64,000 bases of DNA from an uncultured Chloroflexia bacterium (GCA_963841545.1 CAWJDE010000004.1:65474-129473), one strand, 5' to 3'. Shown: positions 7,503 through 27,081, counted from the stretch's first letter. Numbers and translations: made by a program. The notes: generated by a model not told the origin, from the letters alone.

Positions 7503-8246
7503 TCATCGGCCCACCGCGATGCCCCGTGGCGGCCCCTCGAGCAGGCGAGCGTGGCCTCGCTCGACGGCGGCCCAGATCAGCGCCGCGCCCGGCCAGGGCA
7601 CAGTGCCGCGCAGGGAAGCGAGCGCCTCCTCGACGCGCGCGGGACAGGCCGCCGCCAGGGTTCCGGCGCCCGCGCGCACGGCGTCCCGCATCGCCGCCGT
7701 GTTCCTCACAACCAGCAACCGTCCGACCGCGCGCCCTTCGAGATCCGGAAGGGCGGCCAGGGCGTCGGTCTTCTGGGCCGCCCACCGCACCTGCTGCTCG
7801 ACCCGCCGAAGCTGGCTGTGGATCTCCGTCGCAACCGCGTCCGCACCGGACCGGTCGCGGAGCACGAGGTCGATCACGCCGCGGACAGGCCGGTAGACGG
7901 GGACCTCCGGCGCGACCTGCCAGCGCGGATGGAGGGCCGCGATCAGCGCCTCGCTCATGGCGATCTGGAGGCGGTCCCGGATGCGCGGGCCCGTGTTGGG
8001 GAACAGCCGGACGGAGAGGTCCGCGCCGAGCGCCTCGCCGATCGCCAGGAGCACCTCCAGGCTCGGTTCGGCTGTGCCGGCCTCGATTGCGGAGAGATGC
8101 GACTGGGCGACGCCGGACGCACGTGCGACCGCCGCCTGGGACCTGCCGGCATCCTCCCGCAACCGTCGGAGCTCGAGGCCGAGTGCCCGAAACAGGTCGC
8201 GGCGACGGCCCCGGAGCTGGCGGCGGTTCACGATCGACGTTGTCAT
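7503..8246 (-). CDS. Helix-turn-helix (XRE family) transcriptional regulator
   Basis: An N-terminal HTH is present ('LRRLREDAGRSQAAVARASGVAQSHLSAIEAG'). The ORF is 247 aa. Confidence 0.7.
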   Translation of the reverse strand: MTTSIVNRRQLRGRRRDLFRALGLELRRLREDAGRSQAAVARASGVAQSHLSAIEAGTAEPSLEVLLAIGEALGADLSVRLFPNTGPRIRDRLQIAMSEALIAALHPRWQVAPEVPVYRPVRGVIDLVLRDRSGADAVATEIHSQLRRVEQQVRWAAQKTDALAALPDLEGRAVGRLLVVRNTAAMRDAVRAGAGTLAAACPARVEEALASLRGTVPWPGAALIWAAVERGHARLLEGPPRGIAVGR

Positions 8247-8289
8247 CGCTGCCAGTGAACGCTTTGCGTCTCAACCGCCACTCAACCGG

Positions 8290-8585
8290 CCGTCACCCGG
8301 GTTTTCGGGGCCGCTTGATCGCCACAGGCGATCAGATCGGGCGCTGGGCTACGTCTACAGCTGCCTCGGTCGCAAAGCGTTCGCCCGTGGCGATCGGGCG
8401 ATGGGCGGTGGGCGATCGGGCGGTGGGCTTTGGCGAGGGGCGACAGGGCGACACGATGGGGCGATCGGGGCGACGGGCAATAGGGCGACGGGGCGATCGA
8501 CGGGCGGTGGGGCGATCGTCGATGGGCGACGGGGCGATCGTCGGTGGGCGAATGGCGACGGGCGGCGGGGCGCTCGTCGATGGGC
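8290..8585. repeat. Degenerate tandem repeats of 'gggcgatcg / gggcgacgg / gtgggcg' units between the HTH regulator and lhr
   Basis: Many consecutive units such as '(g)gggcgatcgNcgggcggtg' are seen directly in the sequence. Confidence 0.5.
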
Positions 8586-8609
8586 TATGGCGACGGCGGT
8601 CGGCGCGGC

Positions 8610-8658
8610 AACAGAACATCTGTACGAAATAGGTGTCGCGCCCTATACTCGCGGTCCC
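8610..8658 (+). promoter_or_regulatory. Candidate promoter and SOS-box-like palindrome upstream of lhr: 'aGAACatctGTaCGa' (8615–8630), then a 17-bp spacer, then a TATACT -10 element (8646–8651) only 7 bp before the GTG at 8659, which suggests a leaderless start
   Basis: This is a low-GC island in a 73% GC background. It resembles the Gram-positive/mycobacterial LexA box GAAC-N4-GTTC with one mismatch. Confidence 0.3.
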
Positions 8659-11600
8659 GTGGCCGCGCGCACCAAGGATCCCCTCGCGCCGTTCGGGCCC
8701 GCCGTCCGGGCCTGGTTCGAGGCGACGTTCGAGGCGCCGACGCCGGCCCAGGCCCAGGGCTGGGCGGCGATCGCGAAGGGCCACCACACGCTGATCCACG
8801 CGCCGACCGGGAGCGGCAAGACGCTGGCGGCCTTCCTGTGGTGCCTGGACCGCCTGGTGGAGGACCCGCGCCCGGCGCCGACCCGCCAGGATCCGGGCAC
8901 CGTCCGCGTCCTCTACGTCAGTCCGCTCAAGGCGCTCACCTACGACGTCGAGCGCAACCTGCGGGCGCCCCTCGCCGGCATCGCCCTCGAGGCACGGCGG
9001 CTGGGCCACGAGCCGCCTCGCATCTCGATCGGCAGCCGCACCGGGGACACCCCGGCCGACGAGCGCCGCGACCTCGTCCGCCACCCGCCGGACATCCTGG
9101 TCACCACCCCGGAGAGCCTGTACCTGCTGCTGACCAGCCAGGCGCGGGAGATCCTGCGCGGCGTCGAGCACGTGATCGTGGACGAGGTCCACGCGATCGC
9201 GGGGACCAAGCGCGGGGCGCACCTCGCGCTCAGCCTCGAGCGCCTGGAGCGGCTCCGGGGCGGCGAAGCCGGGGGCGACGCGTCCTCGCTGCAGCGGATC
9301 GGTCTCAGCGCCACGCAGCGGCCGCTCGAGACCATCGCCCGGTTCCTCGGCGGCGTCGGCGATGATCGGGTGGTCGCCATCGTCGACGCCGGCACGCGCA
9401 AGCCCCTCGAGCTGCAGGTGGTGGTGCCGGTCGAGGACATGGCGCGCCTGGGCGAGGTCCTGCCGATGGACGAGCAGCCGGGCGGCCCGGTGGTCGGCGG
9501 CGAGCGGCGGACCAGCATCTGGCCGGCCATCCACCCACGGATCCTCGAGCTCATCCGCGAGCACCGCAGCACGATCGTGTTCACCAACAGCCGCCGCCTC
9601 GCCGAGCGCCTCGCGCAGCGCCTCAACGAGCTTGCCGGCGAAGACCTCGTGCGTGCCCATCACGGCAGCATCGCCAGGGAGCAGCGGCTCGAGATCGAGG
9701 AGGAGCTCAAGGCCGGCCGGCTGCCCGCGCTGGTCGCGACCAGCAGCCTCGAGCTCGGCATCGACATGGGTGCCGTCGACCTCGTCGTCCAGGTCGAGAG
9801 CCCGACCTCGGTCGCCCGCGGCCTCCAGCGGATCGGCCGGGCCGGCCACCACGTCGGCGAGCCGTCCAAGGGCGTGATCTTCCCCAAGTACCGCGGCGAC
9901 CTGCTCGAGACCGCGGTCGTGGTGAAGGGCATGCACGAGGGCTCGATCGAGCCCACCGTCCTGCCGCGCAACCCGCTCGACGTGCTTGCCCAGCAGCTGG
10001 TCGCGATGACCATCGGCGCGCGGTTCGGCGTGGACGAGCTGCTGACGCTGGTTCGCCGCGCCGCCCCGTTCGAGACGCTCACCCGCGAAGCCCTCGAGGG
10101 GGTGCTGGGCATGCTCGCCGGCGCCTATCCCTCGGACGAGTTCGCCGAGCTCAAGCCCCGGATCGTGTGGGACCGCCTGACCGACACGATCGAGGGCCGG
10201 CAGGATGCTCGCACGGTCGCCGTGACCAGCGGCGGCACGATCCCTGACCGCGGCCTGTTCCCGGTCTTCCTCGAGGGCGAGGCCGGCACCCCGGGCCGGC
10301 GCGTGGGCGAGCTGGACGAGGAGATGGTGTACGAGCTGCGGGCCGGCATGCACGGCGACGTGATCGTGCTCGGCGCCAGCTCCTGGCGGGTGGCCGAGAT
10401 CACGCCCCACCGCGTGTTCGTCACCCCGGCGCCGGGCGTGCCCGGCAAGCTGCCGTTCTGGAAGGGTGACACGGTGGGCCGGCCCGTCGACCTCGGGCGC
10501 CGGATCGGCGCCTTCGTGCGCGGGGTGGAGACGGACCTCGCCGCGGGTGCGAAGGGTCGGGCGAGGGCGGCCGAACGCCTGCGTGTCGAGCATGATCTCG
10601 ACGAGCTCGCCGCGGAGAACCTGCTCGCGTACCTCGAGGACGAGCAGACGGCGACCGGCGCCCTGCCGACCGATCGCCGGATCGTCATCGAGCGCTTCCG
10701 CGACGAGCTCGGCGACTGGCGGCTGGTGATCCTGACGCCGTTCGGCGGTCGCGTCCATGCGCCCTGGACGATGGCGCTCGAAGCCCGGCTCCAGGAGCGC
10801 CTGGGGCTCGAGGTCCAGACGATCTGGTCCGACGACGGGATTGCGATCCGGCTGCCCGAAGGCGACGCGACGCTCGAGGGCGTGGAGGAGCTCCTGTTCC
10901 CCGAGCCCGACGAGGTCGAGGACCTGGTCGTGGGGCGGGTGGGCCAGTCGAGCCTGTTCGCCAGCCGGTTCCGCGAGAATGCGAGCCGCGCCCTGCTCCT
11001 GCCACGCCGGCGGCCCGGCACCCGCACGCCGCTATGGCAGCAGCGCCAGCGCGCCGCGGACCTGTTGGCGGTGGCGTCGCGTTACGGGAGCTTCCCGATC
11101 CTCGTGGAGACGTACCGCGAGTGCCTCGCGGACGTGTTCGACCTGCCCGCGCTGCGCGAGGTGCTCGACGGCGTCCGGCGGCGCGAGGTGGCCGTGCACA
11201 GTGTCGAGACGGCGCGCGCGTCAGCCTTCGCGAGCTCGCTCCTGTTCGACTACATCGCCGCGTACATGTACGACGGCGACACGCCGATGGCCGAGCGGCG
11301 GGCCCAGGCGCTGACGCTCGATCGCGACCTGCTGCGCGAGCTGCTGGGCCAGGAGGAGCTGCGCGAGCTGCTCGATCCCGATGCGCTGGCCGACCTCGAG
11401 CTCAGCCTCCAGGCGCTGGCCGAGGAGCGCCACGCGCGGACCGCCGACCAGGTCCACGACCTGCTGCGGCGGCTGGGCGATCTCTCGCTGGACGAGGCGG
11501 GGGCGCGGACCGTCGGGGGACGGGTGGAGGCGTCGCTCCACCTGGCCGAGCTCGCGTCGTCGCGGCGCGCGGTCCGGGCGCGGATCGGCGGCGAGGACCG

Positions 11601-13431
11601 CTGGATCGCGATCGAGGATGTGGCCCGCTACCGGGACGGGGTGGGGGTCGCCGCTCCGCCGGGCGTGCCACAGGCATTTCTCGGGCCGGTGACCGGGGCG
11701 ATGGACGGGCTGCTGGCGCGGTTCGCGCGGACGCACGGGCCGTTCCTGGGCGTCGAGCCTGCCCGCCGGTGGGGACTGCCGGTGGGGGCCGTCGAGGACG
11801 CCTTGCACCGGCTGGTCGCCGGTGGGACGGTGCTCTCGGGCGAGTTCAGGCCGGGTGGCGCGGAGCGCGAGTACTGCGATCCCGAGGTGCTCCGGCTGCT
11901 CCGCCGGCGCTCGCTGGCGGTGCTCCGGCGCGAGGTGGAGCCGGTGGACCCGGTCACGCTCGCCCGGTTCCTGCCGGCCTGGCAGGGCGTCGCGGCCTCA
12001 CCGTCCATGGCCGGTTCCTCGTCCGTCGCCGGTTCTCCGCCGCGCTCCGGATCGCCGTCCGTCGCCGGTTCTCCGTCCATCGCCGGTTCTCCGTCCATCG
12101 CCGCGTCGTCGATCCTGCCGCTCCGCGGCCCCGCCGCCCTCGAGCGCCTGGCCGAGGTCGTCGACCAGCTCGCCGGCCTGCCCATCCCGGCGTCGGTCCT
12201 CGAGCGCGACGTCCTCCCGGCGCGGGTCGCGGGCTACCAGCCCCGGCTGCTGGACGAGCTGGGCGCGATGGGCGAGGTCGCCTGGGTGGGGCGCGGGAGC
12301 CTCGGCCGCGACGACGGGCGGGTGGTGCTGTACCGGCCGGGCCGCGAGCTGCTCAGGCCGGCAGGTCCGCCCGACGGGGTCGAGCGCCCGGCCGACGACC
12401 TGCACGAGCGGATCCGGGCGCACCTCCGGCGCCGTGGCGCCTCCTTCTACCGCGAGCTGTACGGCGCTGTCGGCGGGCGATCCGACCGCGAGGTGCTCGA
12501 CGCGCTGTGGGACCTCGTCTGGTCGGGCGAGGTCACGAACGACACGTTCGCACCCCTCCGCTCGCTGCGCTGGAAGCGGCCCGCGCGGGATCGACGGCCG
12601 CGGCCGGGGCGCCTGACCTCGCTCGGGCCACCCGAGGCGGCGGGCCGCTGGTCGCTGGTGGCAGAGGAGCTGCCCGACGAGGCGCCGGCCGTGACCCGGA
12701 CCGAGCGGCTCCACGCGCTCGCCCTCGCCCTGCTCGAGCGGCACGGCGTGGTCACCCGCGAGGCCGTCGCCGCCGAGCCGATCGACGGCGGGTTCTCGGC
12801 CGTGTACCCGGTGCTCCGGGCGATGGAGGAGGCGGGCAGGGTCCGGCGCGGCTACTTCGTGGACGGCCTGGGGGCTGCCCAGTTCGCCCTCCCGGGGGCC
12901 GTCGACCGGCTCAGGGCGCTCCGGGACCAGCCGGGCGAGACGGCCGGCGAATTGGGTCGCGTCGTGCGCCTCCTGGCGGCGGCGGACCCCGCCAACCCGT
13001 ACGGTGCGGCACTGCCATGGCCGCGTCGCGGGGCCGACGACCGGCGTCCGCTCCAGCGCGCCGCCGGCGCCTACGTCGCGCTCGTCGACGGCGAGGCGGT
13101 GCTGTACGTCGATCGCGGCGGCACCTCGCTCCAGGTCCTCCCCGCGGGCGACGATCGCGCGACCCTGGCGGCCGCGCTCGGCAGCCTCGCGGACCTCGTC
13201 GACGACGGCCGGGTGCGCGAGCTGGTGGTCTCGAAGGTCGACGGTGCACCGGTCGCCACGTCCCGGTTCCACGAGGCGCTCAAGGACGCCGGCTTCGTCC
13301 CCGGCTACCGTGGCTACCTGCTGCGTCCGGCGACGCCGGTGGACCGCGCCTACCCTCGCCCGACGCCCGTCCGCCCGACGCCCGTCCGGCAGACGCCCGT
13401 GCGGCAGACGCCCGTCCGGCCGGCCGGCTGA
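8659..13431 (+). CDS. lhr: Lhr-family ATP-dependent DNA helicase (large helicase-related protein). Alternative start is the ATG at 8587
   Basis: The N-terminus reads 'DPLAPFGPAVRAWFEATFEAPTPAQAQGWAAIAKGHHTLIHAPTGSGKTLAAF' with Walker A. DEVH and helicase-C motifs follow ('IVDEVHAIAGTKRG', 'RIGRAGH'), and the ORF is about 1590 aa. It is followed by a Fpg/Nei glycosylase gene, as in mycobacterial lhr–nei2. Confidence 0.85.
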   Translation: MAARTKDPLAPFGPAVRAWFEATFEAPTPAQAQGWAAIAKGHHTLIHAPTGSGKTLAAFLWCLDRLVEDPRPAPTRQDPGTVRVLYVSPLKALTYDVERNLRAPLAGIALEARRLGHEPPRISIGSRTGDTPADERRDLVRHPPDILVTTPESLYLLLTSQAREILRGVEHVIVDEVHAIAGTKRGAHLALSLERLERLRGGEAGGDASSLQRIGLSATQRPLETIARFLGGVGDDRVVAIVDAGTRKPLELQVVVPVEDMARLGEVLPMDEQPGGPVVGGERRTSIWPAIHPRILELIREHRSTIVFTNSRRLAERLAQRLNELAGEDLVRAHHGSIAREQRLEIEEELKAGRLPALVATSSLELGIDMGAVDLVVQVESPTSVARGLQRIGRAGHHVGEPSKGVIFPKYRGDLLETAVVVKGMHEGSIEPTVLPRNPLDVLAQQLVAMTIGARFGVDELLTLVRRAAPFETLTREALEGVLGMLAGAYPSDEFAELKPRIVWDRLTDTIEGRQDARTVAVTSGGTIPDRGLFPVFLEGEAGTPGRRVGELDEEMVYELRAGMHGDVIVLGASSWRVAEITPHRVFVTPAPGVPGKLPFWKGDTVGRPVDLGRRIGAFVRGVETDLAAGAKGRARAAERLRVEHDLDELAAENLLAYLEDEQTATGALPTDRRIVIERFRDELGDWRLVILTPFGGRVHAPWTMALEARLQERLGLEVQTIWSDDGIAIRLPEGDATLEGVEELLFPEPDEVEDLVVGRVGQSSLFASRFRENASRALLLPRRRPGTRTPLWQQRQRAADLLAVASRYGSFPILVETYRECLADVFDLPALREVLDGVRRREVAVHSVETARASAFASSLLFDYIAAYMYDGDTPMAERRAQALTLDRDLLRELLGQEELRELLDPDALADLELSLQALAEERHARTADQVHDLLRRLGDLSLDEAGARTVGGRVEASLHLAELASSRRAVRARIGGEDRWIAIEDVARYRDGVGVAAPPGVPQAFLGPVTGAMDGLLARFARTHGPFLGVEPARRWGLPVGAVEDALHRLVAGGTVLSGEFRPGGAEREYCDPEVLRLLRRRSLAVLRREVEPVDPVTLARFLPAWQGVAASPSMAGSSSVAGSPPRSGSPSVAGSPSIAGSPSIAASSILPLRGPAALERLAEVVDQLAGLPIPASVLERDVLPARVAGYQPRLLDELGAMGEVAWVGRGSLGRDDGRVVLYRPGRELLRPAGPPDGVERPADDLHERIRAHLRRRGASFYRELYGAVGGRSDREVLDALWDLVWSGEVTNDTFAPLRSLRWKRPARDRRPRPGRLTSLGPPEAAGRWSLVAEELPDEAPAVTRTERLHALALALLERHGVVTREAVAAEPIDGGFSAVYPVLRAMEEAGRVRRGYFVDGLGAAQFALPGAVDRLRALRDQPGETAGELGRVVRLLAAADPANPYGAALPWPRRGADDRRPLQRAAGAYVALVDGEAVLYVDRGGTSLQVLPAGDDRATLAAALGSLADLVDDGRVRELVVSKVDGAPVATSRFHEALKDAGFVPGYRGYLLRPATPVDRAYPRPTPVRPTPVRQTPVRQTPVRPAG

Positions 13432-13463: not shown

Positions 13464-14282
13464 ATGCCCGAGGGCGACACGCTTGCCCGCACCGCCGCCG
13501 GGCTTCGGCCGTTCCTGGTCGGGCGTCGGGTCACCGCGGCGAGCGCGCCGGCGGCCTCCGCCCGACCACCGGGACCGCAGGCGGGCCGCCTGGTCGGCGC
13601 CATGGTCACCGCGGTCGAGGCGTCCGGCAAGAACCTGCTGATCCGGTTCGACAACGGGCTCGAGGTCCGGACGCACCTGCGGATGCACGGATCCTGGCAC
13701 CGCTACCGCCCGGGCGAGCGGTGGCGGCGCCCGGCGGCGCGGGCCCGGCTGGTCATCGAGGTGCCGGGGTCGGTGGCCGTGTGCTTCGATGCCCCGACCG
13801 TCGAGCTGTTCGAGCAGCGGGCCGAGCCCGCCCATCCATCCCTCTCCCGGCTCGGACCGGACCTGCTGAAGGACCCGTTCGATCTCGAGGCGGCGATCCG
13901 CCGGCTGCGGGACCCCGCTCGAGCCGACCGATCGATCGCCGAGGCGCTCCTGGACCAGGGGGCGCTCGCCGGGATCGGCAACGAGGTCAAGAGCGAGGTG
14001 CTCTGGGAGGCCCGCGTCTCCCCGTGGACGCCGGTTCGCGACATCGATGACGCGTCGCTCGAGCACGTCGTCGAGCGTGCGCGGGCGATGCTTCGTGCCG
14101 GGGCCGCCACCGGACGCCGGCCGCGCCGGATCTACCGTCGCGCGGGGCGCCCGTGTCCCCGCTGCACCAGCCTGGTCCGGGTCGAGCGCCAGGGCGCCGA
14201 CCTGCCACGCCTCACCTTCTGGTGCCCGGGCTGCCAGCCCGGGGAGCGGGACCGCCCGAGGGCTATGCTGGGTCGATCGTGA
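13464..14282 (+). CDS. nei: Fpg/Nei-family DNA glycosylase / AP lyase (Nei2-like)
   Basis: The N-terminus 'MPEGDT' has the catalytic Pro2/Glu3. A C-terminal zinc finger is present ('CPRCTSLVRV…FWCPGCQ'). The ATG lies 33 bp after the lhr stop. Confidence 0.85.
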   Translation: MPEGDTLARTAAGLRPFLVGRRVTAASAPAASARPPGPQAGRLVGAMVTAVEASGKNLLIRFDNGLEVRTHLRMHGSWHRYRPGERWRRPAARARLVIEVPGSVAVCFDAPTVELFEQRAEPAHPSLSRLGPDLLKDPFDLEAAIRRLRDPARADRSIAEALLDQGALAGIGNEVKSEVLWEARVSPWTPVRDIDDASLEHVVERARAMLRAGAATGRRPRRIYRRAGRPCPRCTSLVRVERQGADLPRLTFWCPGCQPGERDRPRAMLGRS

Positions 14283-15700
14283 CCACCCGGTCCGCGGTTT
14301 CCCGATCGCTCGCCCATCGCGCGCCTGCCCGCCCGTCGTTGGGCCTGCGCTCGATGGTCATCCTGGTGCCCGCGGGCGTGGTGCTCGTCCTCGAGCTGCT
14401 CAGCGACACGGTGCTCGACGAAGCGCTCCCGTTTCCATGGGACACCATCCTGGTCACCGTCGCGGTCCTGCTGATCGGCGCCGTCCTCGCGCGGCTGGTG
14501 TTCGCCCGGATCGACGCCCTCACCGGCGTCCTCCGCGCCCGCAACACCGAGCTCGAGGCGCGCGGCGCAGCGGCCCGCGCCCTCCACCGGGTGAGCGTCC
14601 AGATCGCCGCCCTCACCGACGTCGACCTCGTGCTCGAGGCCGTGGTCACCCATGCGCGCGAGCTGCTGGCGGCCGACGTCGCGGTGCTCCTCCTCGAGGA
14701 TGCCCAGGGCGGGCTCGAGGTCCGGGCCACGGCCGGCCGAACCGGGACCGCCGGGACCCGCGCCGTCCACGCCGCCGAGGCGTCCGTGGCGACGGGCGCG
14801 GACGCGATCCTCGCCTTCGTCGACCCGGCGACCGCGACCGTCCGCCTCTCGGCGCCCCTCCAGCGTGGCGGCCAGACCATCGGCCTGCTCGCGATCGGCG
14901 TCGCGACGCCGCGCGGCTTCGACGCCGACGAGATCGAGACGCTCGCCTCGCTGGCCAACCAGGCGACGATCGCGCTCGAGCATGCCCGGCTCGAGACGCG
15001 CCTCCGCGAGCTCGCGGTCATCGAGGAGCGCGAGCGGATCGCCCGCGAGCTGCACGACGGGATCGCCCAGGTCCTGGGCTACGTCAACACGAAGTCGCAG
15101 GCGGTCGACGGATTCCTCGCCCGGGGCCGGGTGGACGAGGCGCGCACGCAGGTGGCGGAGCTGGGCGCGGCGGCCCGCGCGGTGTACGTCGACGTGCGAG
15201 AGGCGATCCTCGGCCTGCGCAGCCCGCTGGAGCCCGGACAGGGGCTGGGCGCGGCGGTCGAGGCGCATGCCCGACGGGTCGCGCAGGCATCGCGGTTCAC
15301 CGTCGATTGCTCGATCCCGCCGGCGGCCCGCGACCTTCGGCTCGACGCCGAGACAGAGGCGCAGGTCTACCGCATCGTCCAGGAGGCGCTGACCAATGTC
15401 CGCAAGCACGCCGCGGCCGGCCGGGTGAGGGTCTCGATGACGATCGTCGACGGCCGGCTGGATCTCGCAGTCGACGACGACGGCCGCGGGCTCTCGGCCG
15501 CTGGAGCGCCGGCCGACGTGCCGCACTACGGCCTGCGCTCGATGCAGGAGCGGGCCGCCGCGGTGGGGGCGACGCTCGAGGTACGCGAGCGGCCGTCCGG
15601 CGGCGTGGGCGTCCGGCTGGCGCTGGATCTCGCCGGCCATGAGCGTCCGGCACGGGTCGGCGGGGCGGCCGATTCGCGAACCGGGACCGCGGGCGGCTGA
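14279..15700 (+). CDS. Membrane sensor histidine kinase with a GAF domain plus HisKA_3 and HATPase domains (NarL/DegS type). The GTG start overlaps the nei stop (GTGA); alternative start is the ATG at 14354
   Basis: TM segments are 'MVILVPAGVVLVLELL' and 'ILVTVAVLLIGAVLARLVF'. A GAF-like region is followed by the H-box 'ERERIARELHDGIAQVLGYV' and the ATPase motifs 'RIVQEALTNVRKHA' and 'DDGRG'. Confidence 0.8.
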   Translation: MTTRSAVSRSLAHRAPARPSLGLRSMVILVPAGVVLVLELLSDTVLDEALPFPWDTILVTVAVLLIGAVLARLVFARIDALTGVLRARNTELEARGAAARALHRVSVQIAALTDVDLVLEAVVTHARELLAADVAVLLLEDAQGGLEVRATAGRTGTAGTRAVHAAEASVATGADAILAFVDPATATVRLSAPLQRGGQTIGLLAIGVATPRGFDADEIETLASLANQATIALEHARLETRLRELAVIEERERIARELHDGIAQVLGYVNTKSQAVDGFLARGRVDEARTQVAELGAAARAVYVDVREAILGLRSPLEPGQGLGAAVEAHARRVAQASRFTVDCSIPPAARDLRLDAETEAQVYRIVQEALTNVRKHAAAGRVRVSMTIVDGRLDLAVDDDGRGLSAAGAPADVPHYGLRSMQERAAAVGATLEVRERPSGGVGVRLALDLAGHERPARVGGAADSRTGTAGG

Positions 15701-15701
15701 G

Positions 15702-16349
15702 GTGCGGGTCCTGCTGGCCGACGACCATGCGCTGTTCCGCGACGGCCTGGCCTCGCTGCTGGCGGCGTGGGGCCACGACGTCGTCGGCCAGGTCGCCGAC
15801 GGCGACGCCGCCGTGCTGAGCGCCCTGGAGCTCCGCCCTGACCTCGTGCTGATGGACGTCTCGATGCCGGGCAGCGGCGGGCTCGACGCCACGCGCCGGA
15901 TCGCCGGCCGGGCGCCGGGGCTGCCGATCGTGATGCTCACGGCGAGCGAGGACGTGGACGACCTGTTCGCCGCGCTCAAGGCCGGCGCCCGCGGCTACCT
16001 GCTCAAGAACCTCGAGTCGAGCGAGCTGCGGACGATGCTCGACGCCGTGGCGCGTGGCGAGGCGGCGATCACGCCGGCGATCGCAGCGCGCATCCTGGCC
16101 GAGCTCGCGCGCGTCGACCGACCGGCGGATGCGCCGATCCGCGGTCCGGACCACCTGACCGATCGGGAGCTGGACGTGCTCCGGCTGGTCGTCGACGGGC
16201 TGCGCAACAAGGAGATCGCTGCGGCGCTCGGCGTGTCCGAGAACACGGTGAAGTTCCACCTGCGCAACATCCTCGACAAGCTGCACGCGCAGAACCGGGC
16301 CGAGGTGGTGGCGCGGGCGATGCGCGAGGGCCTGCTCGCCGACCACTGA
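15702..16349 (+). CDS. NarL/LuxR-family response regulator
   Basis: The receiver domain reads 'VRVLLADDHALFRDGL…LVLMDVSMPG…' and a LuxR HTH 'LTDRELDVLRLVVDGLRNKEIAAALGVSENTVKFHLRNIL' follows. The GTG lies 1 bp after the kinase stop, giving 215 aa. Confidence 0.85.
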   Translation: MRVLLADDHALFRDGLASLLAAWGHDVVGQVADGDAAVLSALELRPDLVLMDVSMPGSGGLDATRRIAGRAPGLPIVMLTASEDVDDLFAALKAGARGYLLKNLESSELRTMLDAVARGEAAITPAIAARILAELARVDRPADAPIRGPDHLTDRELDVLRLVVDGLRNKEIAAALGVSENTVKFHLRNILDKLHAQNRAEVVARAMREGLLADH

Positions 16350-16412
16350 CGGCCGAGCCCAGCCGGCCCGGGCCATGCCGCCCGTGGCGCCCACCCGAAA
16401 GGATGGGGCGCC

Positions 16413-16430
16413 CGCCCGTCCGGACGGGCG
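16413..16430. promoter_or_regulatory. Perfect 18-bp palindrome CGCCCGTCCGGACGGGCG between the response-regulator stop and the Fe-S flavoprotein operon. It could be an operator or a terminator stem
   Basis: The two halves are exact reverse complements. The site lies 64 bp downstream of the response-regulator stop and 53 bp upstream of the ATG at 16483. Confidence 0.35.
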
Positions 16431-16482
16431 TGGTGCGCCGGGGCTCGCGGGCCGATGCTCGAACCGCCAGAAGGAGGCGGCG

Positions 16483-18522
16483 ATGGGCTATCGCATCGAC
16501 ATCGACGAGGGCGGCTGCATCACCTGCGGGGTGTGCATGGACGTCTGCCCGGTCGAGGCACTGGACATGTCCCGCCCGCAGCTGGCGGGGATCGAGACGG
16601 GGCCTGGACCCGGTGGACGGCCGCTGCCGTGGATGATGGAGCACCCGCTGCAGGTGGGCGAGTGCATCGGCTGTGGCATCTGCATCCGCGAGTGCCCGCC
16701 CGACGTGATGACGCTGGTCACGGTCGACGGCGCCGTCCCGCTCGCGGCCCGGCAGGGTCCGATCGAGCGGCCGGCCGCGGCCGGGTCAGGCGGCGGTGCC
16801 TGGATGCCCCTCTCGGAGGTCACCCGCGAGGCGCTCAAGCCGGTCCACGACTCGCCCTGGGGCAGCCTGTTCCGCTGGCAGACGCGGTCGCGCCCGAAGC
16901 CCTGGCAGACCTGGATGACCATGGTCGACCAGCCGCCCGCCTCGCCCATCGCGCCGTGCCAGGAGGCGTGCCCGGCCGGCACCGATGCCGGCCGCTACGT
17001 CGGCCTGATCGGCCAGGGCCGGTACGACGAGGCCTACGCCGTCGCGGCCGAGGTCAATCCGTTCCCGTCGGTCTGCGGCTGGATCTGCACCGCCCCCTGT
17101 GAGGCGGCCTGCCGGCGCGGCGTCCTTGACGAGCCGATCTCGATCCGGACCCTGAAGCGGTTCGCGGCCGAGCATGGCCGGCTGCCCAAGGTCGCCCCGC
17201 CCGACACCAGGCGCGCCGACAAGGTCGCGATCGTGGGCGGCGGGCCTGCCGGGATGGCGGCCGCCTACTACCTCGCCCGCCTTGGCTATCCGGTCACGGT
17301 GATGGAGGCGATGCCGGTGCCGGGCGGCATGATGGCCATCGGGATCCCGGAGTACCGCCTTCCGCGCGAGGTGCTCCAGGAGGAGATCGGCCGGATCCTG
17401 GACCTCGGGGTCGAGCTCCGGCTGGACACGGCGATGGGCCGTGACTTCAGCCTGCCCGACCTGGAGCGCGAGGGCTTCCGGGCGATCTTCCTCGCGACCG
17501 GCGCCTCCAAGAGCCGCCGGCTGGGCGTCCCGGGCGACGAGCTGCCGGGCGTGATCCCGGCCACCCGCTTCCTCAAGGAGGTCAACCTCGGCGAGCACCC
17601 GCGGCTGTCGGGCGACGTGATCGTCGTCGGCGGCGGGAGCACGGCGATGGACGCCGCGCGATCCGCGCGGCGGAGCGGGGCGACGACCGTCACCATCGTC
17701 TACCGCCGCGGCCGCGCGGACATGCCGGCCCAGGTCGAGGAGATCGAGGCCGCGGAGCGCGAGGGCATCGCGATCCTCGACGGCCTGGCACCGACCGAGG
17801 TCGTCGGGCGCGACGGCAGCGTCGTCGCGCTGCGGAGCGCCGTCCAGCGGCCCGGCGCGACGGTCAAGGCCGGCTCGACCGGCGGCCGCGCGGCCTGGGA
17901 GCCCACCGGGGAGACCCGGGAGCTGCCGGCTTCGGCGATCCTCGTCGCCATCGGCGAGGAGCCGGACCCGTCCATCCTCCCCGAGGGTGCCGGGATCGAG
18001 GTCAGCGGCTGGGCCGGGATCGTCGCCGATCCGCGCACGCTGGCCACGGGCCGGGCCGGCATCTTCGCCGGCGGCGACGTCGTGTCCGGACCCCGCACGA
18101 TCATCGAGGCGGTCGCGGCCGGGCGCCGCGCGGCGGCCTCCATCCACGAGTATCTCGCCGGTGCGGCGGACGGCGAGGCCGAGATCTTCGCCACCGTCCG
18201 CTACCGGACACCACCCGAGCTCCGGCTCCAGCTGGACCTGGCCGGTCGGGCCCGGGCGCACCCGGCCCTGCCGGTGGTGCAGATCTCGACGTTCACCGCC
18301 AACCAGGCGGGCTTCGACGAAGCGACGGCACGCGCCGAGGCCTCGCGCTGCTTCCGCTGCGACGCGGTCCACGGCTGCCCGTCGGTCAGCGTCCTCGCGG
18401 GACGCGGCCCGGCCGACAGCCGGCACCCGGCGGCACCCGGCGCCGGCCCCATCGCCCCGATCCCCGCAGCCACAACCCCGGCGGCCTCGTCCGCCCCGTC
18501 TTCGAATGGAGGTGCTCGGTGA
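16483..18522 (+). CDS. Iron-sulfur flavoprotein: an N-terminal 2x[4Fe-4S] ferredoxin fused to a glutamate-synthase-small-subunit (GltD/PreT-like) FAD/NAD(P)-binding oxidoreductase
   Basis: A strong SD 'aaggagg' lies 6 bp upstream of the ATG. Cysteine motifs are 'CITCGVCMDVCP' and 'CIGCGICIRECP'. A GltD-type Fe-S region 'CQEACPAGTD…CGWICTAPCEAAC' and Rossmann motifs 'VAIVGGGPAGMAAA' and 'VIVVGGGSTAMD' follow. Confidence 0.85.
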   Translation: MGYRIDIDEGGCITCGVCMDVCPVEALDMSRPQLAGIETGPGPGGRPLPWMMEHPLQVGECIGCGICIRECPPDVMTLVTVDGAVPLAARQGPIERPAAAGSGGGAWMPLSEVTREALKPVHDSPWGSLFRWQTRSRPKPWQTWMTMVDQPPASPIAPCQEACPAGTDAGRYVGLIGQGRYDEAYAVAAEVNPFPSVCGWICTAPCEAACRRGVLDEPISIRTLKRFAAEHGRLPKVAPPDTRRADKVAIVGGGPAGMAAAYYLARLGYPVTVMEAMPVPGGMMAIGIPEYRLPREVLQEEIGRILDLGVELRLDTAMGRDFSLPDLEREGFRAIFLATGASKSRRLGVPGDELPGVIPATRFLKEVNLGEHPRLSGDVIVVGGGSTAMDAARSARRSGATTVTIVYRRGRADMPAQVEEIEAAEREGIAILDGLAPTEVVGRDGSVVALRSAVQRPGATVKAGSTGGRAAWEPTGETRELPASAILVAIGEEPDPSILPEGAGIEVSGWAGIVADPRTLATGRAGIFAGGDVVSGPRTIIEAVAAGRRAAASIHEYLAGAADGEAEIFATVRYRTPPELRLQLDLAGRARAHPALPVVQISTFTANQAGFDEATARAEASRCFRCDAVHGCPSVSVLAGRGPADSRHPAAPGAGPIAPIPAATTPAASSAPSSNGGAR

Positions 18523-19127
18523 ACGCCGACCAGGTCGCCGGCCTGTTTGATGCCGGCGAGGGTTTCGTCGAGGGCACGATCGCCGCGGCGCTCGTGATCC
18601 TGTGGATCCTCTCGGTGGCGCTCCACCTGGCGCGCCCGTACATGGTCCGCACGACGGGCAAGTTCACGCTCCGCCTGGGTGCCGACCTGTGGTGGATCAT
18701 CTACGTCGCCCTGCGCGACCTCGTGCTGCTCAACGTCTTCCTGGGCAGCTTCATCTACTTCTACCCCGACGTCATCACCGGGCAGAACCTCCCGGTCACC
18801 GGTGGGCTGGCGGCGGTCTGCGCGTTCGCCGCCCTGGTGATCAAGCTGATGACGAAGGGCGACGAGGACCTGGCGTGGATGCGGGTGCAGGTGGTCCTGA
18901 TCGGGATCGGCGCCGTGCTGTATCTCACGCCGTATCTGCTCGGAACCCAGACGACGCTCCTCCATGGCTCCAGCCTGGCGGACCTCTCGAGCGCGCTGGT
19001 CTCGTCGAGCAACCCGGGCCTGGCCCTGCCGCTGTGCTACCTGTCCGCGGCCGCGACCGGTGTCCTCGGTCTCGTCGCCGTCGCCTACAACTTCTCGCTG
19101 TCGATGCGCCGGCCGAAGGCGGCCTGA
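18519..19127 (+). CDS. Integral membrane protein (about 5 TM), paralogue A; function unknown
   Basis: The GTG overlaps the upstream stop (GTGA). Hydrophobic helices are present, including 'IAAALVILWILSVALHLARPY…LWWIIYVALRDLVLLNVFLGSFIYFYPDV'. Confidence 0.55.
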   Translation: MNADQVAGLFDAGEGFVEGTIAAALVILWILSVALHLARPYMVRTTGKFTLRLGADLWWIIYVALRDLVLLNVFLGSFIYFYPDVITGQNLPVTGGLAAVCAFAALVIKLMTKGDEDLAWMRVQVVLIGIGAVLYLTPYLLGTQTTLLHGSSLADLSSALVSSSNPGLALPLCYLSAAATGVLGLVAVAYNFSLSMRRPKAA

Positions 19128-19137
19128 GGAGAGACCG

Positions 19138-19800
19138 ATGCTGAGTGGAGACGATCTCGCTGCTGCGATCACCAACGGCGGCTCCAACTGGATGGTGCTG
19201 TCGGTCGCCGCGGTCCTGCCCATCATCTGGGCGTTCACCCTGGCGCTGCATTTCGCGCGGCCGTACGTGCTGCGCTTCCTCCAGAGGCTCACGCTCCGGT
19301 TCGGTGGCGACGTCTGGTGGCTGTCCTACGTGCTCACCCGCGACGCGCTGCTGGTGATCACGCTGTGCCTGTCGGTGGTGTTCCTGTTCCCCAACGTCTA
19401 CCTGCGCGGCGACGGTCTCGGGATCACCGCGCCGGTGGCCACGCTGGTGCTGTTCTGGGCGGCCCTGGTCAAGCTCATCCGCGACCCGGACGACAACCCG
19501 TCCGACTTCCGGCTCCAGAGCATCCTCCTGGTCATCGCGTCGGTCCTCTACATCGTCCCGCAGATCTACGGCATGGAGGCTGCCGACCAGGGGTTCGACT
19601 TCACGAAGAACGTGCTGATGTCGATCAACCCCGACACGGGCGTCCTCAACGGCCTGGCCCGACCCATCCTGTGGACCAGCCTCGCGCTGTTCGCGCTCAC
19701 CGGCGGTGCCCTGTTCGTGCGCTTCCTGATGCGTCTCGGGCAGCCGGCCGACGGCGAGTCGATCGGCGCCGAGCCGGGGGCCGCGACGGCCCGGTCCTGA
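19138..19800 (+). CDS. Integral membrane protein (about 5 TM), paralogue B of the preceding gene
   Basis: 'IIWAFTLALHFARPYVLR…VWWLSYVLTRDALLVITLCLSVVFLFPNV' aligns with paralogue A, including a conserved 'ALH(L/F)ARPY' motif. The ATG at 19138 has an RBS-like 'ggagag'. Confidence 0.55.
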   Translation: MLSGDDLAAAITNGGSNWMVLSVAAVLPIIWAFTLALHFARPYVLRFLQRLTLRFGGDVWWLSYVLTRDALLVITLCLSVVFLFPNVYLRGDGLGITAPVATLVLFWAALVKLIRDPDDNPSDFRLQSILLVIASVLYIVPQIYGMEAADQGFDFTKNVLMSINPDTGVLNGLARPILWTSLALFALTGGALFVRFLMRLGQPADGESIGAEPGAATARS

Positions 19801-19869
19801 CCGCGACCTGCCCGGCCGGTTTCCCCGGCCGGGTATCGTCCGCCCGCCGGGCCCCGGCCCTCACGAGCC

Positions 19870-20502
19870 TCAGCCGCCGGGCCGGACGTGCCCGTCGTAC
19901 CGGCCGCCGTCGGCGAACGTGACGACGTAGGCGCCATCGGGGGTGGTGAACCGGACGACGTCGGGGTCGCGCCCGGGGAACAGGGAGCGCAGGGTCTCGC
20001 GGACCTGGTAGGTGAGGTTGCCGCCCACGCACTCGGTCACCGGGATGGGACCGCATGCGACCGCGAACATCGGCAGGTCGGGCACGATCTCGAGCTGGTC
20101 GTTGCCAACGACGCACGCCCCCTCCACGGCATCGCCCTCGTGCACGACGACCGTGCCGGTGGCGTCGAGGATCTCGAGCCCCGGCGCGAACCGGGCCCGG
20201 TAGCCGGCCGGCCAGACGACGTCCATGCGGGTTCGGTCGTCGAGGCGCTCGAGCCAGGCGACGCGTGGGTCCGCCGGGTCGCCGCGGAGGACGGTGGACA
20301 GCCCCACCCCGGCACACGCGACCGGGGCGCCGGCGACCTGCGGCTGACCGGGCACGGTCGGCAGGTCGAGCAGCTGCCCCTCGCCGGGTGGTCGCGTCGC
20401 GTCACCGGGCGACCCGCCTGGACCGAGGATCGCGATCCCGAGTGCGAGCACGATGCCAAGGAGCAACACCGCCGCGACGGCCACGATGCCGGCTCGCGTC
20501 AT
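19870..20502 (-). CDS. Hypothetical protein with an N-terminal signal-anchor/TM segment
   Basis: The N-terminus reads 'MTRAGIVAVAAVLLLGIVLALGIAILG'. The rest has a varied composition; no motif recognised. Confidence 0.45.
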   Translation of the reverse strand: MTRAGIVAVAAVLLLGIVLALGIAILGPGGSPGDATRPPGEGQLLDLPTVPGQPQVAGAPVACAGVGLSTVLRGDPADPRVAWLERLDDRTRMDVVWPAGYRARFAPGLEILDATGTVVVHEGDAVEGACVVGNDQLEIVPDLPMFAVACGPIPVTECVGGNLTYQVRETLRSLFPGRDPDVVRFTTPDGAYVVTFADGGRYDGHVRPGG

Positions 20503-25378: not shown

Positions 25379-26212
25379 ATGGCGCACGGCACCGTCATCG
25401 TCATCGGCGGCGCCGAGGACAAGGTCCGCGACCGGGTCATCCTCGGCCGGTTCGTGACGCTTGCCGGCGGCGATGCCGCCCGGATCGCCGTGATCAGCTC
25501 CGCGTCCTCGCTGGGGCCGGAGGCGGGGGCTCGATACGAGGCCGTGTTCACGGATCTTGGCGCCGCTCACGTCCGGTCGCTCCACGCGGTGGCCCGCACC
25601 CAGGCCAACGACGAGCACGCGGCCCAGGCGATCCGGGACGCCAGCGGCATCTTCCTGACCGGCGGCAACCAGCTCCGGCTGTCGTCGACCATCGGCGGCA
25701 CCCGGCTCGCCACGGCGATCGCCGCCCGGTTCGAGGCGGGTGCCGTGGTCGCCGGGACGTCGGCCGGGGCGAGCGCCGTCTCGTCGCACATGATCGCGTT
25801 CGGCGCGTCCGGGGCGACCCCCAAGCACCGCATGGCCCAGATCGCGGCCGGTCTCGGGCTGCTCCCGGGTGTGATCGTCGACCAGCACTTTCAGCAGCGG
25901 AACCGGCTGGGGCGGCTGCTGTCGGTGATCGCCCAGAACCCGAGCCTGCTGGGCCTGGGTGTCGACGAGGACACGGCGGGCGTGGTCGGGCCGGACCAGA
26001 TCATGGAGGTCATCGGGCGCGGGTCGATCACCGTGGTCGACGGGGCCGCGTCGGAGACCGACGCGTGGGAGATCCGCGGGCACCGGCCGCTGATGATCAG
26101 CGGCGTCGTCCTGCATTCGCTGCCGGCCGGCTATCGGTTCGACCTCCAGCGCCGGGTGCGCGTCCCGACGCCGCAGCTCCATGCGATCCAGGGCGAGGCG
26201 GCCTCGAGCTGA
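25379..26212 (+). CDS. cphB: Cyanophycinase (peptidase S51)
   Basis: The translation includes 'VIVIGGAEDK…ARIAVISSAS…GIFLTGGNQLRL…AGTSAGASAVSSHMI…IVDQHFQQRNRLGRLL', with the Ser nucleophile in the 'GTSAG' context typical of CphB. Confidence 0.8.
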   Translation: MAHGTVIVIGGAEDKVRDRVILGRFVTLAGGDAARIAVISSASSLGPEAGARYEAVFTDLGAAHVRSLHAVARTQANDEHAAQAIRDASGIFLTGGNQLRLSSTIGGTRLATAIAARFEAGAVVAGTSAGASAVSSHMIAFGASGATPKHRMAQIAAGLGLLPGVIVDQHFQQRNRLGRLLSVIAQNPSLLGLGVDEDTAGVVGPDQIMEVIGRGSITVVDGAASETDAWEIRGHRPLMISGVVLHSLPAGYRFDLQRRVRVPTPQLHAIQGEAASS

Positions 26213-26305
26213 CGCCGGCCGGCATCGGTGCCCCGACGGCTGCCACCGGCACGGGCGACCTCATCCCGGCGCCGTTGCCGAGGGTCCGGCGCTTCGGGCA
26301 GCTGC

Positions 26306-26836
26306 CTAGCGCTTCAGGCAGGCGTTGATCCGCTGCAGCCGACCACCGAGGCTGAGCCTGAGCTCGAGCGAGCCGTACCGCAGGCCACGGAACATGTAGA
26401 CCAGGGTCGGAGTCTGGAAGGCGCTGCTGAGCCGTTGCGGCTGCCCAAGCGTTGCGACGATCTCGTTCACGCCGTCGCCCCAGTGCAGCCCCTGGGGCAG
26501 CTCGCCCCGAAACGTATCGATCGAGCCGTTGCCCGGGCCATACAGCGACACCACCTGCACCAGGCCGTCGGGCAGCGTCACGGCTGTCCATTCCGGGCAG
26601 ACGACCGTGCGACCCTCGCCGATCGCGAGCGGCGCGCTCGGGCAGCCGGTGTCTCCCAGCCTGGTGCCCAGGAGCGCGACCGGGTCGCCCGCGGGCGTCG
26701 CCCCGAGCAGCACGCCGTTGGCCGTGTCCTGACCGAGCGAGGGGATGAGGCCGAACGACAGGACGACTGCGACGATGACCGCCAACGCAGCCACGCGTCC
26801 CAGCCGACCAATCCTGTCCGGATGCAACCTGTTCAT
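26306..26836 (-). CDS. Hypothetical exported or membrane-anchored protein
   Basis: The N-terminus 'MNRLHPDRIGRLGRVAALAVIVAVVLSFGL' suggests a membrane anchor. The function is unknown. Confidence 0.4.
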   Translation of the reverse strand: MNRLHPDRIGRLGRVAALAVIVAVVLSFGLIPSLGQDTANGVLLGATPAGDPVALLGTRLGDTGCPSAPLAIGEGRTVVCPEWTAVTLPDGLVQVVSLYGPGNGSIDTFRGELPQGLHWGDGVNEIVATLGQPQRLSSAFQTPTLVYMFRGLRYGSLELRLSLGGRLQRINACLKR

Positions 26837-27081
26837 CGGCGCCCCGCCTGGCAACCTCCACTTCGAGTCATTGCCGATGCTGCACCGCGGTGCACGCACG
26901 GCCAAGTGCTGGCCGGTGGCCATTCCCGGTCATTGCGGCCTCCGGCAACCATCCCGCAACGCATCGGCCTTGCCGTCCACGGCTGGCCCCGCCCGTCCGC
27001 CGCGGCGTACCGCGGCGTACCGCGGCGCACCGTGGGCCATTCCGGCTCGTACACTGCACGTTCCGCACCAGGAGGACGAAC

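Follow-up and report, generated by a model that had tools for sequence, protein, structure and literature searches.

A conserved gene module of a two-cluster ferredoxin and five-helix membrane proteins in Limnocylindria, other bacteria and archaea: a candidate membrane-bound electron-transfer complex

Proteins of the GltD-like superfamily take electrons from NAD(P)H and pass them on, via [4Fe-4S] clusters of low potential, to another protein or domain (PMC8097209). The members known so far occur as soluble proteins or within soluble complexes, without dedicated membrane partners. In complex II, a cytoplasmic flavoprotein/Fe-S module sits on two small related hydrophobic anchors (SdhB on SdhC/SdhD); the quinone site lies at the interface between the Fe-S subunit and the anchors, and heme is dispensable in some classes. 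The locus analysed here encodes a GltD-like flavoprotein which, unlike those known members, is accompanied by two membrane proteins of its own, TM1 and TM2. It is located in a stretch of 64,000 nucleotides (nt) from an uncultured Chloroflexia bacterium (GCA_963841545.1 CAWJDE010000004.1:65474-129473), referred to below as the window. The extended ferredoxin domain of this flavoprotein and the membrane proteins were encountered side by side in bacteria as well as in archaea, and very probably form a functional unit.

The window has a base composition of 74% G+C and is identical to a soil-metagenome contig in ENA (ERZ25039539 contig_14883). Its closest relatives were metagenome-assembled genomes (MAGs) labelled Limnocylindrales or Limnocylindria, of the Chloroflexota; a search of a plasmid collection gave no match. 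Five genes follow each other on the plus strand in the order sensor histidine kinase, NarL-type response regulator, ferredoxin-GltD flavoprotein, TM1 and TM2 (lengths in amino acids, aa):

14354-15700, plus strand: sensor histidine kinase (Pfam), corresponding to L001 5836-7182 and colinear with the operon in all Limnocylindria loci with enough flanking sequence
15702-16349, plus strand: NarL/LuxR-type response regulator (Response_reg and GerE domains), likely GTG start
16483-18522, plus strand: flavoprotein of 679 aa, ATG start at 16483
16483-16932, plus strand: flavoprotein residues 1-150, extended 2x[4Fe-4S] ferredoxin domain (Pfam, BLASTP and family signature)
16948-18378, plus strand: flavoprotein residues 156-632, GltD/NfnB-like module with C-terminal Cys motif (Pfam, NCBIfam and PDB matches)
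18379-18522, plus strand: Pro/Ala-rich low-complexity C-terminal end of the flavoprotein and stop codon (homolog alignments)
18519-19127, plus strand: TM1, protein of 202 aa with five transmembrane segments, GTG start overlapping the flavoprotein stop
19138-19800, plus strand: TM2, 220-aa paralogue of TM1 with the same five-transmembrane fold, ATG start

This layout agreed with the original prediction, made from the sequence of the window, of a 679-aa fusion between a ferredoxin and a GltD-type FAD/NAD(P) oxidoreductase (the length of the open reading frame (ORF) and the Pfam domains concurred), located directly 3' of a GAF/HisKA_3 kinase and a NarL-type regulator. The GTGA overlap announced between flavoprotein and TM1 was real and occupied 18519-18522, the GTG of TM1 at 18519 overlapping the flavoprotein TGA at 18520-18522; the gap between TM1 and TM2, given as 11 bp, measured 10 nt (19128-19137). 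A Shine-Dalgarno sequence (AAGGAGG) preceding the flavoprotein ATG was kept across an alignment of the regulator-flavoprotein intergenic regions from 14 Limnocylindria species.

Conservation of the neighbourhood was followed in two scans. Species-level genomes yielded 375 loci, of which the best 80 were inspected and were all from Limnocylindria/Chloroflexota MAGs; for metagenomes, the scan started from variant bacterial forms and returned at least 538 matches, of which 80 were inspected. The order kinase-regulator-flavoprotein-TM1-TM2 was kept in every one of the ~80 Limnocylindria species loci with enough flanking sequence, at identities which descended to 48% (kinase), 56% (regulator), 65% (flavoprotein), 62% (TM1) and 58% (TM2), and most loci retained the 4-nt start/stop overlap between flavoprotein and TM1. 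The three operon genes, whose co-occurrence had been proposed as a check, were conserved neighbours in these ~80 species and in far more divergent bacteria.

Distant members of the membrane family were archaeal, and those carrying a label came from Nitrososphaerota, Micrarchaeota and Marsarchaeota. All six archaeal contexts, which included these three phyla and others, displayed a single TM gene directly followed by a two-cluster ferredoxin gene of 144 to 197 aa; no GltD module was present in these loci and their flanking genes were otherwise unrelated. The three ferredoxins compared directly, one from each labelled phylum, aligned end-to-end with residues 1-147 of the flavoprotein (34-37% identity, E 1e-21 to 1e-25, BLASTP), and the alignment covered both the insert WMME.P.Q and the extension W.PLS..T....DPWG....W...R....Q.W. 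The insert, together with LS..T...DPWG...W from the extension, constitutes a signature of the ferredoxin family, and the family-specific Trp-rich extension was found only beside TM genes. Residues 1-150 of the flavoprotein appear on this basis to be an ortholog of the stand-alone ferredoxins encoded beside TM genes.

Bacterial loci could be divided into three types. Type A, which formed the majority, displayed the ferredoxin-GltD fusion followed by TM1 and TM2, with ferredoxin identities to that of the window down to 36% and G+C contents from 49% to 72%. Type B was composed of a free ferredoxin gene, TM1 and TM2, and type C of TM1, ferredoxin and TM2. In every bacterial locus the upstream copy was TM1-like and the downstream copy TM2-like; the duplication is therefore older than the split of types A to C. 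The ferredoxin adjoined one or two TM genes in 137 of 171 loci, the other 34 being 32 truncated contigs and two rearranged loci (L020 and L165). Adjacency was accordingly seen in 137 of 139 assessable loci, and the window locus carries the full signature of the module. As judged from gene content, ferredoxin plus TM protein is the invariant core, and GltD an accessory NAD(P)H input module that was fused to it in one large bacterial group. The early suggestion that the twin membrane proteins are partners of the Fe-S flavoprotein was strengthened, the same ferredoxin family standing always beside the membrane family, even in archaea devoid of GltD. No description of a ferredoxin-TM module was found in the literature on Limnocylindria, on GltD-like membrane proteins or on membrane-anchored ferredoxins. 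With no family model, no solved relative and only 'hypothetical' labels besides, both the membrane family and the ferredoxin obligatorily paired with it appear to be undescribed.

Both rearranged loci were peculiar. In one Limnocylindria MAG (L020 6593-7750) the regulator, up to residue 105, was apparently joined to the flavoprotein from residue 250, which looks like a deletion, a pseudogene or an assembly error. In L165 (747-1529), an ORF directly upstream of TM1 opened DivIVA-like and ended in the flavoprotein tail EASRCLRCDLAYLCPSIQV; here a deletion, a recombination or a chimeric assembly has removed the entire ferredoxin-GltD body. Additional redox genes were observed near two modules. 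In the Nitrososphaerota locus L083, a second, unrelated ferredoxin-like gene of 100 aa (9477-9779) followed the module ferredoxin and was itself followed by a CLC channel, while an HTH_10 regulator and a V4R-domain gene were located just upstream of the module; a V4R gene was also present in L091. Locus L105, with a TM1-ferredoxin-TM2 module without GltD, displayed a convergent flavodoxin-like gene immediately downstream (7872-8363, minus strand; MKILVAVASRHGSTEEIARAIANEL..., resemblance restricted to the N-terminus), which might encode an alternative electron partner.

TM1 is a true paralogue of TM2 (32% identity, E 1e-30, BLASTP), and each has five hydrophobic segments. Their AlphaFold2 models (predicted local distance difference test, pLDDT, 89.7 and 91.0, respectively) displayed the same five long helices and a short amphipathic helix after helix 1, and the motif ALH(L/F)ARPY is common to both. 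The predicted twin five-helix paralogues were thus confirmed. They had also been called unannotatable, and indeed no characterised family or solved fold was matched: TM1 and TM2 gave no Pfam or NCBIfam match, none of 144 family members gave one in Pfam, and no solved-structure relative of the family was found. A weak Pfam kinship was considered and rejected, since the 144 members at E <= 1 produced scattered noise (SecD-TM1, DUF4244). Homologs of TM1 and TM2 amounted to at least 1866 and at least 1571 clusters at 90% identity, respectively, and all named ones were labelled 'hypothetical'. A combined TM1 and TM2 profile retrieved 268 clusters (50% identity) among 1.84 billion representatives, which characterises a narrow family.

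Lysine and arginine residues numbered 0, 4, 0, 2, 0 and 3 over the N-terminus, loops 1 to 4 and the C-terminus; because of this distribution (positive-inside rule), the N-terminus is predicted outside and the C-terminus inside, with which homologs bearing signal peptides and extracytoplasmic N-terminal domains agree. Eleven positions were invariant from bacteria to archaea (R39, Y41, T50, L51, R52, D56, W58, W59, R66, D67 and P83) and seven near-invariant (A38, R44, A105, L110, D115, L134 and N165). Except for P83, the invariant residues cluster between positions 39 and 67, in cytoplasmic loop 1 and where helix 2 begins; D115 belongs to cytoplasmic loop 3, and P83 and N165 to the outer side. 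The family signature reads AR.Y-x8-(T/S)LR..AD.WW..Y...RD. Since the flavoprotein displayed no signal peptide, its ferredoxin domain must meet the TM proteins on this conserved cytoplasmic face. A bis-His heme held across a TM1/TM2 dimer by the His of ALH(L/F)ARPY was considered and excluded: many family members from bacteria and archaea have Gln in its place, and not one His is invariant across the family. The TM proteins also lack any conserved pair of His or Met; they should therefore carry no heme, as would fit a heme-less quinone-site anchor.

Some bacterial TM1 homologs displayed a signal peptide followed by an external beta-sandwich-like domain or by His/Asp/Glu-rich repeats, e.g. DAHADEAEDAHADE. 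The extension comprised ~130 aa in P0257, P0260 and P0261; further variants were P0262, P0273, P0284, P0282 and P0251. No significant Pfam domain was detected in these extensions, which suggest metal binding or another extracytoplasmic role. They are absent from the TM proteins of the window and from most family members.

In the flavoprotein, Pfam recognised two Fer4 domains (residues 5-75), Fer4_20 (157-231, E 1.2e-16) and Pyr_redox_2 (247-547, E 1e-36). The latter two exceeded their cut-offs and place the protein in the GltD-like Fe-S flavoprotein superfamily. Conserved cysteines of the ferredoxin domain are 12, 15, 18, 22, 61, 64, 67 and 71, to which the conserved insert and the Trp-rich C-terminal extension are added. 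Every curated NCBIfam cut-off was missed. The nearest model was PRK12771 (NF009410; 459.3 bits for a cut-off of 516, residues 156-633), which is itself without the N-terminal ferredoxin domain; AegA and YgfT (NF009408 and NF009451) scored 199.7 and 168.9 bits for cut-offs of 1003 and 1154, respectively, and the YgfK and GltA models were likewise far below. The best PDB relatives were NfnA (9n5u), 9bov, StnC (8oh5_C) and NfnB (4ylf/5jca), besides GltD and DPD; E-values of the core against NfnA 9n5u, StnC and NfnB ranged from 1e-71 to 1e-101.

The C-terminal tail had been described as roughly 100 unique residues, a view that did not hold. PRK12771 aligned up to residue 633, StnC and 9bov up to ~628, and residues ~595-633 displayed FDE..A..EASRC.RCD....CP, the first part of which aligned with NfnA residues 563-596. 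The motif E619-x3-C623-x2-C626-x5-C632-P was conserved, and 90% or more of 60 homologs kept its three cysteines. A Pro/Ala-rich, low-complexity, lineage-specific and poorly conserved sequence was limited to the final ~40 residues, for which the consensus is undefined; tblastn alignments of homologs often stopped near residues 645-660. The GltD N-domain contains only six cysteines (159, 163, 198, 202, 206 and 210), which are conserved, and the Fer4_20 match begins at profile position 30. The tail may therefore supply the missing RCxxC ligands, in a permuted arrangement typical of this subfamily.

The kinase displayed two N-terminal TM segments joined by a very short outside loop, one GAF domain, HisKA_3 and HATPase_c. 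Its best NCBIfam matches, NarQ and NarX, were far below cut-off, and its best PDB matches (phmmer) were VraS and DesK, to which its catalytic core is similar. The likely GTG start of the regulator, at 15702, is one base after the kinase stop, and alignments with homologs start at position 22 of the longer reading frame. Response_reg (E 3.4e-27) and GerE (E 6.4e-21) assign this protein to the NarL/FixJ family, without any NCBIfam equivalog cut-off being reached (152.6 of 250 bits for NarL). PDB matches comprised NarL (1.8e-34), DevR (1.5e-24), VraR and DesR, the regulator being closer to NarL and VraR than to DevR. Outside Limnocylindria, NarL-type regulators in various orientations also accompanied the operon. 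The link between two-component system and operon thus persists through changes of orientation and architecture.

Several sites surround the operon:

16365-16374, no strand: palindrome GGCCCGGGCC just 3' of the regulator gene, invariant or near-invariant in the 14-species alignment
16390-16408, no strand: operator-like site 1, imperfect palindrome CCCACCCGAAAGGATGGGG with conserved block CCYACCCGAAAGGATGGG, ~-93 from the ATG (14-species alignment)
16413-16430 (palindrome), no strand: operator-like site 2, block CCCGNNCGGACGGGCGTGG containing CGCCCGTCCGGACGGGCG, ~-70 from the ATG (conservation and enrichment)
16454-16460, plus strand: GATGCTC block, conserved in the 14-species alignment
19811-19833, no strand: GC-rich hairpin with 9-bp arms and a 5-nt loop, located after the operon and before the convergent gene 19870-20502

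As predicted, a perfect 18-bp palindrome, CGCCCGTCCGGACGGGCG, separates the regulator from the operon. Only two perfect palindromes with arms of at least 9 nt were found in the window, for ~1.6 expected from composition by our estimate; the palindrome alone is therefore not significant, and its occurrence by chance was rejected only through cross-species conservation and positional enrichment. The other one was TCGTCGGCGGGCCCGCCGACGA (1762-1783, 11-nt arms). Palindromes of the class [CT][AG]CCCG-N2-8-CGG[GA][CT][AG] were present in 37 of 74 upstream regions as compared with 2.4 +/- 1.5 in windows drawn at random from these loci, a 15-fold enrichment over these controls, and were clustered at -100 to -70. 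The site 1 motif was found at -93 to -100 in many loci. The palindrome belongs to a conserved two-site operator-like footprint, and the response regulator, whose link to these sites is correlative, presumably binds both.

In type A loci outside Limnocylindria with adjacent kinase and regulator, the related palindromes CCCTACCCGGACGGGTAGGG (L103) and CTACCCGAATGGGTAG (L123) were present at ~-77. In one clade, where the NarL-type regulator is transcribed divergently and lies further off, TAGGGTCTTTSGACCCTA was found instead; the operator-like sequence changes with clade. GGCCCG..CGGGCC palindromes, related to the GGCCCGGGCC block, recurred among loci, and this block is a candidate terminator stem or regulatory site. 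GATGCTC is a possible -10-like promoter element and the hairpin a likely terminator. Consensus scans of this 74% G+C region detected neither a sigma-70 promoter nor a terminator with a T-tract. Low-G+C type A loci without adjacent regulator (L126, L142 and L166) displayed several TGTGAT repeats in the 200 nt upstream of ferredoxin-GltD, which may, speculatively, be sites of a CRP/FNR-type regulator replacing the NarL-type system.

These observations can be tentatively assembled, with slightly more doubt than confidence, into a membrane-bound electron-transfer complex under two-component control. Its core would be the extended 2x[4Fe-4S] ferredoxin, docked on the cytoplasmic face of a heme-less five-TM protein; bacteria would use a TM1/TM2 heterodimer of ancient paralogues and archaea probably a homodimer. 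Electrons would pass from NAD(P)H to FAD, from there to the two [4Fe-4S] clusters formed by the GltD N-domain plus the tail, then to the two [4Fe-4S] clusters of the ferredoxin domain and finally to an acceptor, most likely a quinone, which TM1/TM2 would hold where the membrane meets the cytoplasm; the complex would in that case be a non-canonical NAD(P)H:quinone oxidoreductase. The membrane-anchored GAF kinase and the NarL-type regulator would control transcription, probably via the palindromes at ~-93 and ~-70. Quinone is itself proposed with reserve as the acceptor, because of the analogy with SdhB-SdhCD and PsrB-PsrC, because the conserved surface is rich in Arg, Tyr, Asp and Trp, and because the labelled archaeal carriers come from phyla taken as respiring and quinone-using. 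Such residues are typical of quinone-site chemistry in complex II and at NrfD-type sites. Micrarchaeota possess ferredoxin-dependent oxidoreductases and a bd oxidase (PMC5864196).

Several considerations weigh against this scheme. We infer complex formation, the direction of electron flow, the quinone acceptor and the binding of the regulator to the palindromes. A dedicated kinase and regulator suggest a conditional rather than a housekeeping function, and the external His/Asp/Glu-rich or beta-sandwich-like extensions hint at an outward role that a simple NAD(P)H:quinone reductase does not need. Many family members, in archaea and among types B and C, are without the NAD(P)H module; the donor therefore differs among lineages. 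Finally, transfer from clusters of very low potential to quinone would waste a large driving force unless it is coupled.

The extensions bring to mind a different destination, in which electrons from the ferredoxin-TM unit reach a non-quinone substrate in or outside the membrane (for instance a lipid, a metal ion or part of the envelope) and the TM proteins are catalytic or substrate-binding. This is unlikely, although it would give a role to the variant TM1 homologs, to the conserved Asn (N165) and P83 on the outer side, and to an intramembrane-type kinase whose closest solved relatives, VraS and DesK, sense the state of the envelope or membrane. The membrane domain offers no conserved His, Cys or Met that could carry electrons across the bilayer or hold a catalytic metal, its conservation is strongest on the cytoplasmic face, and the extensions have the restricted distribution noted above. 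An energy-coupled or reversed complex, in which TM1/TM2 use or generate an ion gradient so that quinol, or some other donor, can reduce the low-potential ferredoxin domain and NAD(P)+, or in which they pump ions as NAD(P)H is oxidised, is quite improbable. Invariant or conserved charges, located inside helices or at their termini (D56, R66, D67, K109 and D115), would suit it, as would the large free-energy drop to quinone that the very low-potential GltD clusters make available (PMC8097209), but these charges lie near the cytoplasmic boundary and not mid-membrane, ten TM helices with few buried charges are small for a known redox-driven pump, and no similarity to Rnf, Nqr, the antiporter-like subunits of complex I or Mrp was found. 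It appears very improbable that no complex exists at all, i.e. that TM1 and TM2 are a transporter or otherwise unrelated proteins merely co-transcribed with a soluble NAD(P)H-dependent reductase of AegA/Nfn/DPD type. The flavoprotein core is indeed a standard GltD-like module, close to NfnA, StnC and NfnB, and the TM proteins are without recognisable redox cofactor site; yet ferredoxin-TM adjacency survives two domains of life, three gene orders and GltD fusion or fission while other neighbours change, the start/stop overlap is conserved, and the Trp-rich ferredoxin extension is confined to the TM context.

Regulation invites a further alternative, namely that kinase and regulator form a pair like DosS/DosR, sensing hypoxia or redox state through a heme-GAF domain, and that the operon is a hypoxia-induced respiratory bypass. 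The resemblance to DosS/DosR had been raised in the original prediction and stood at the level of the HisKA_3/NarL families and of the presence of a GAF domain. In addition, TAGGGTCTTTSGACCCTA of the divergent clade resembles a DosR box (GGGWC..GWCCC), and the TGTGAT repeats of low-G+C relatives without the regulator could suit, as a speculation, a CRP/FNR-type factor. The analogy failed beyond that level. DosS and DosT are soluble kinases with tandem GAF domains, of which GAF-A binds heme; the kinase of the window has a single GAF after two TM segments, it matched DosT and DevS (DosS) in PDB through their ATPase domains only (E 3e-5 and 5e-4, phmmer), their GAF domains remaining unmatched, its best NCBIfam models were NarQ and NarX, far below cut-off, and the regulator is nearer NarL and VraR. 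We regard a DosS/DosR-like pair with considerable doubt.

Should the membrane-bound electron-transfer complex prove to be quinone-linked, electrons from NAD(P)H or ferredoxin would have a new way into respiratory chains, and metabolic reconstructions would change for Limnocylindria and for small-genome archaea such as Micrarchaeota. Electron-input modules of Micrarchaeota are poorly understood (PMC5864196). Limnocylindria are abundant uncultured Chloroflexota of soil and freshwater, and essentially all of them keep the cassette. That the complex would then stand for a new class among respiratory NAD(P)H/ferredoxin:quinone oxidoreductases is nevertheless somewhat unlikely. Similarly doubtful is the view that the ferredoxin-TM unit is an unrecognised heme-less ferredoxin:quinone oxidoreductase of bacteria and archaea which, with GltD, would join complex I, NDH-2 and Na+-NQR as a structurally distinct fourth class of respiratory NAD(P)H:quinone oxidoreductase. 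The analysis defines a family without Pfam, NCBIfam or PDB relative, provides it with a partner, a predicted topology and a conserved surface, and assigns a candidate operator to a two-component system so far uncharacterised.

Genes further away were also recorded. In the window and in L002, an Lhr-like helicase (8587-13431 in the window) and an Fpg/Nei glycosylase (13464-14282) were located directly upstream of the kinase. Such a pair, recognised by N-terminal resemblance, was found on the other side of a free-ferredoxin, TM1 and TM2 module in an unrelated locus of 72% G+C (L116 8393-13249), and an Fpg-like gene lay within 6 kb of a Micrarchaeota module (L085 14385-15110). These recurring neighbours may reflect coincidence or old synteny. 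Cyanophycinase (Peptidase_S51) and cyanophycin synthetase genes were present ~6 kb downstream of the operon (~25379-29127 and beyond; L001 16861-20609), as well as in L002; a PMT_2 glycosyltransferase, an MFS transporter and a GT87 gene stood between the operon and the cyanophycin genes.

As regards described systems, E. coli AegA/YgfT and the GltD-like proteins (GltD, NfnB, the N-terminal domain of DPD, StnC and YgfK) share with the flavoprotein the order N-terminal ferredoxin, Fer4_20 and FAD/NAD(P)H domains, and proteins of PRK12771, PRK12814 and StnC type share its C-terminal Cys tail. AegA/YgfT is the nearest architectural analogue. The N-terminal domain of AegA is a HycB-like multi-cluster domain. 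The window flavoprotein falls short of the equivalog cut-offs of both AegA and YgfT, and its two-cluster ferredoxin with insert and Trp-rich extension is distinct; it is a new architecture within a known superfamily.

The two-component pair shares a HisKA_3 plus HATPase_c kinase and a receiver plus GerE regulator with NarX/NarL, DesK/DesR, VraS/VraR and DosS/DosR, and palindromic GC-rich operator-like sites upstream of the target operon with NarL-family systems. The layout of its kinase, two TM segments and one cytoplasmic GAF, fits none of NarX, DesK, VraS and DosS.

In PsrB-PsrC/NrfC-NrfD modules, an Fe-S subunit resembling a ferredoxin rests on a quinone-binding integral membrane subunit free of heme. 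No sequence kinship was found with them, PF03916 being unmatched in the 144 family members; NrfD/PsrC has eight to ten TM helices in two four-helix bundles, whereas TM1 and TM2 have five each. NrfC/PsrB subunits contain four clusters and are usually periplasmic, unlike the ferredoxin of the window, which is two-cluster, predicted cytoplasmic and devoid of a Tat signal. Di-heme cytochrome b anchors of NarI/HdrE/DsrM type (Pfam Nitrate_red_gam), in which conserved His pairs ligate two hemes b, are equally set apart, as the TM proteins gave no Pfam match and have no conserved His. With complex II the likeness is one of design, a cytoplasmic flavoprotein/Fe-S module on two small related anchors. 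Its flavoprotein is SdhA and its donor succinate, whereas the flavoprotein of the window is GltD-like, with NAD(P)H as presumed donor and all four clusters of [4Fe-4S] type by motif. The anchors of the window have five TM segments each and no conserved His, and are unrelated in sequence to those of complex II: neither Sdh_cyt nor Fumarate_red_C/D was matched, and SdhC/SdhD and FrdC/FrdD anchors have three TM segments each, or five with bis-His heme ligands in type B. As a general plan, a soluble redox module seated on a pair of small membrane anchors is nonetheless already known.

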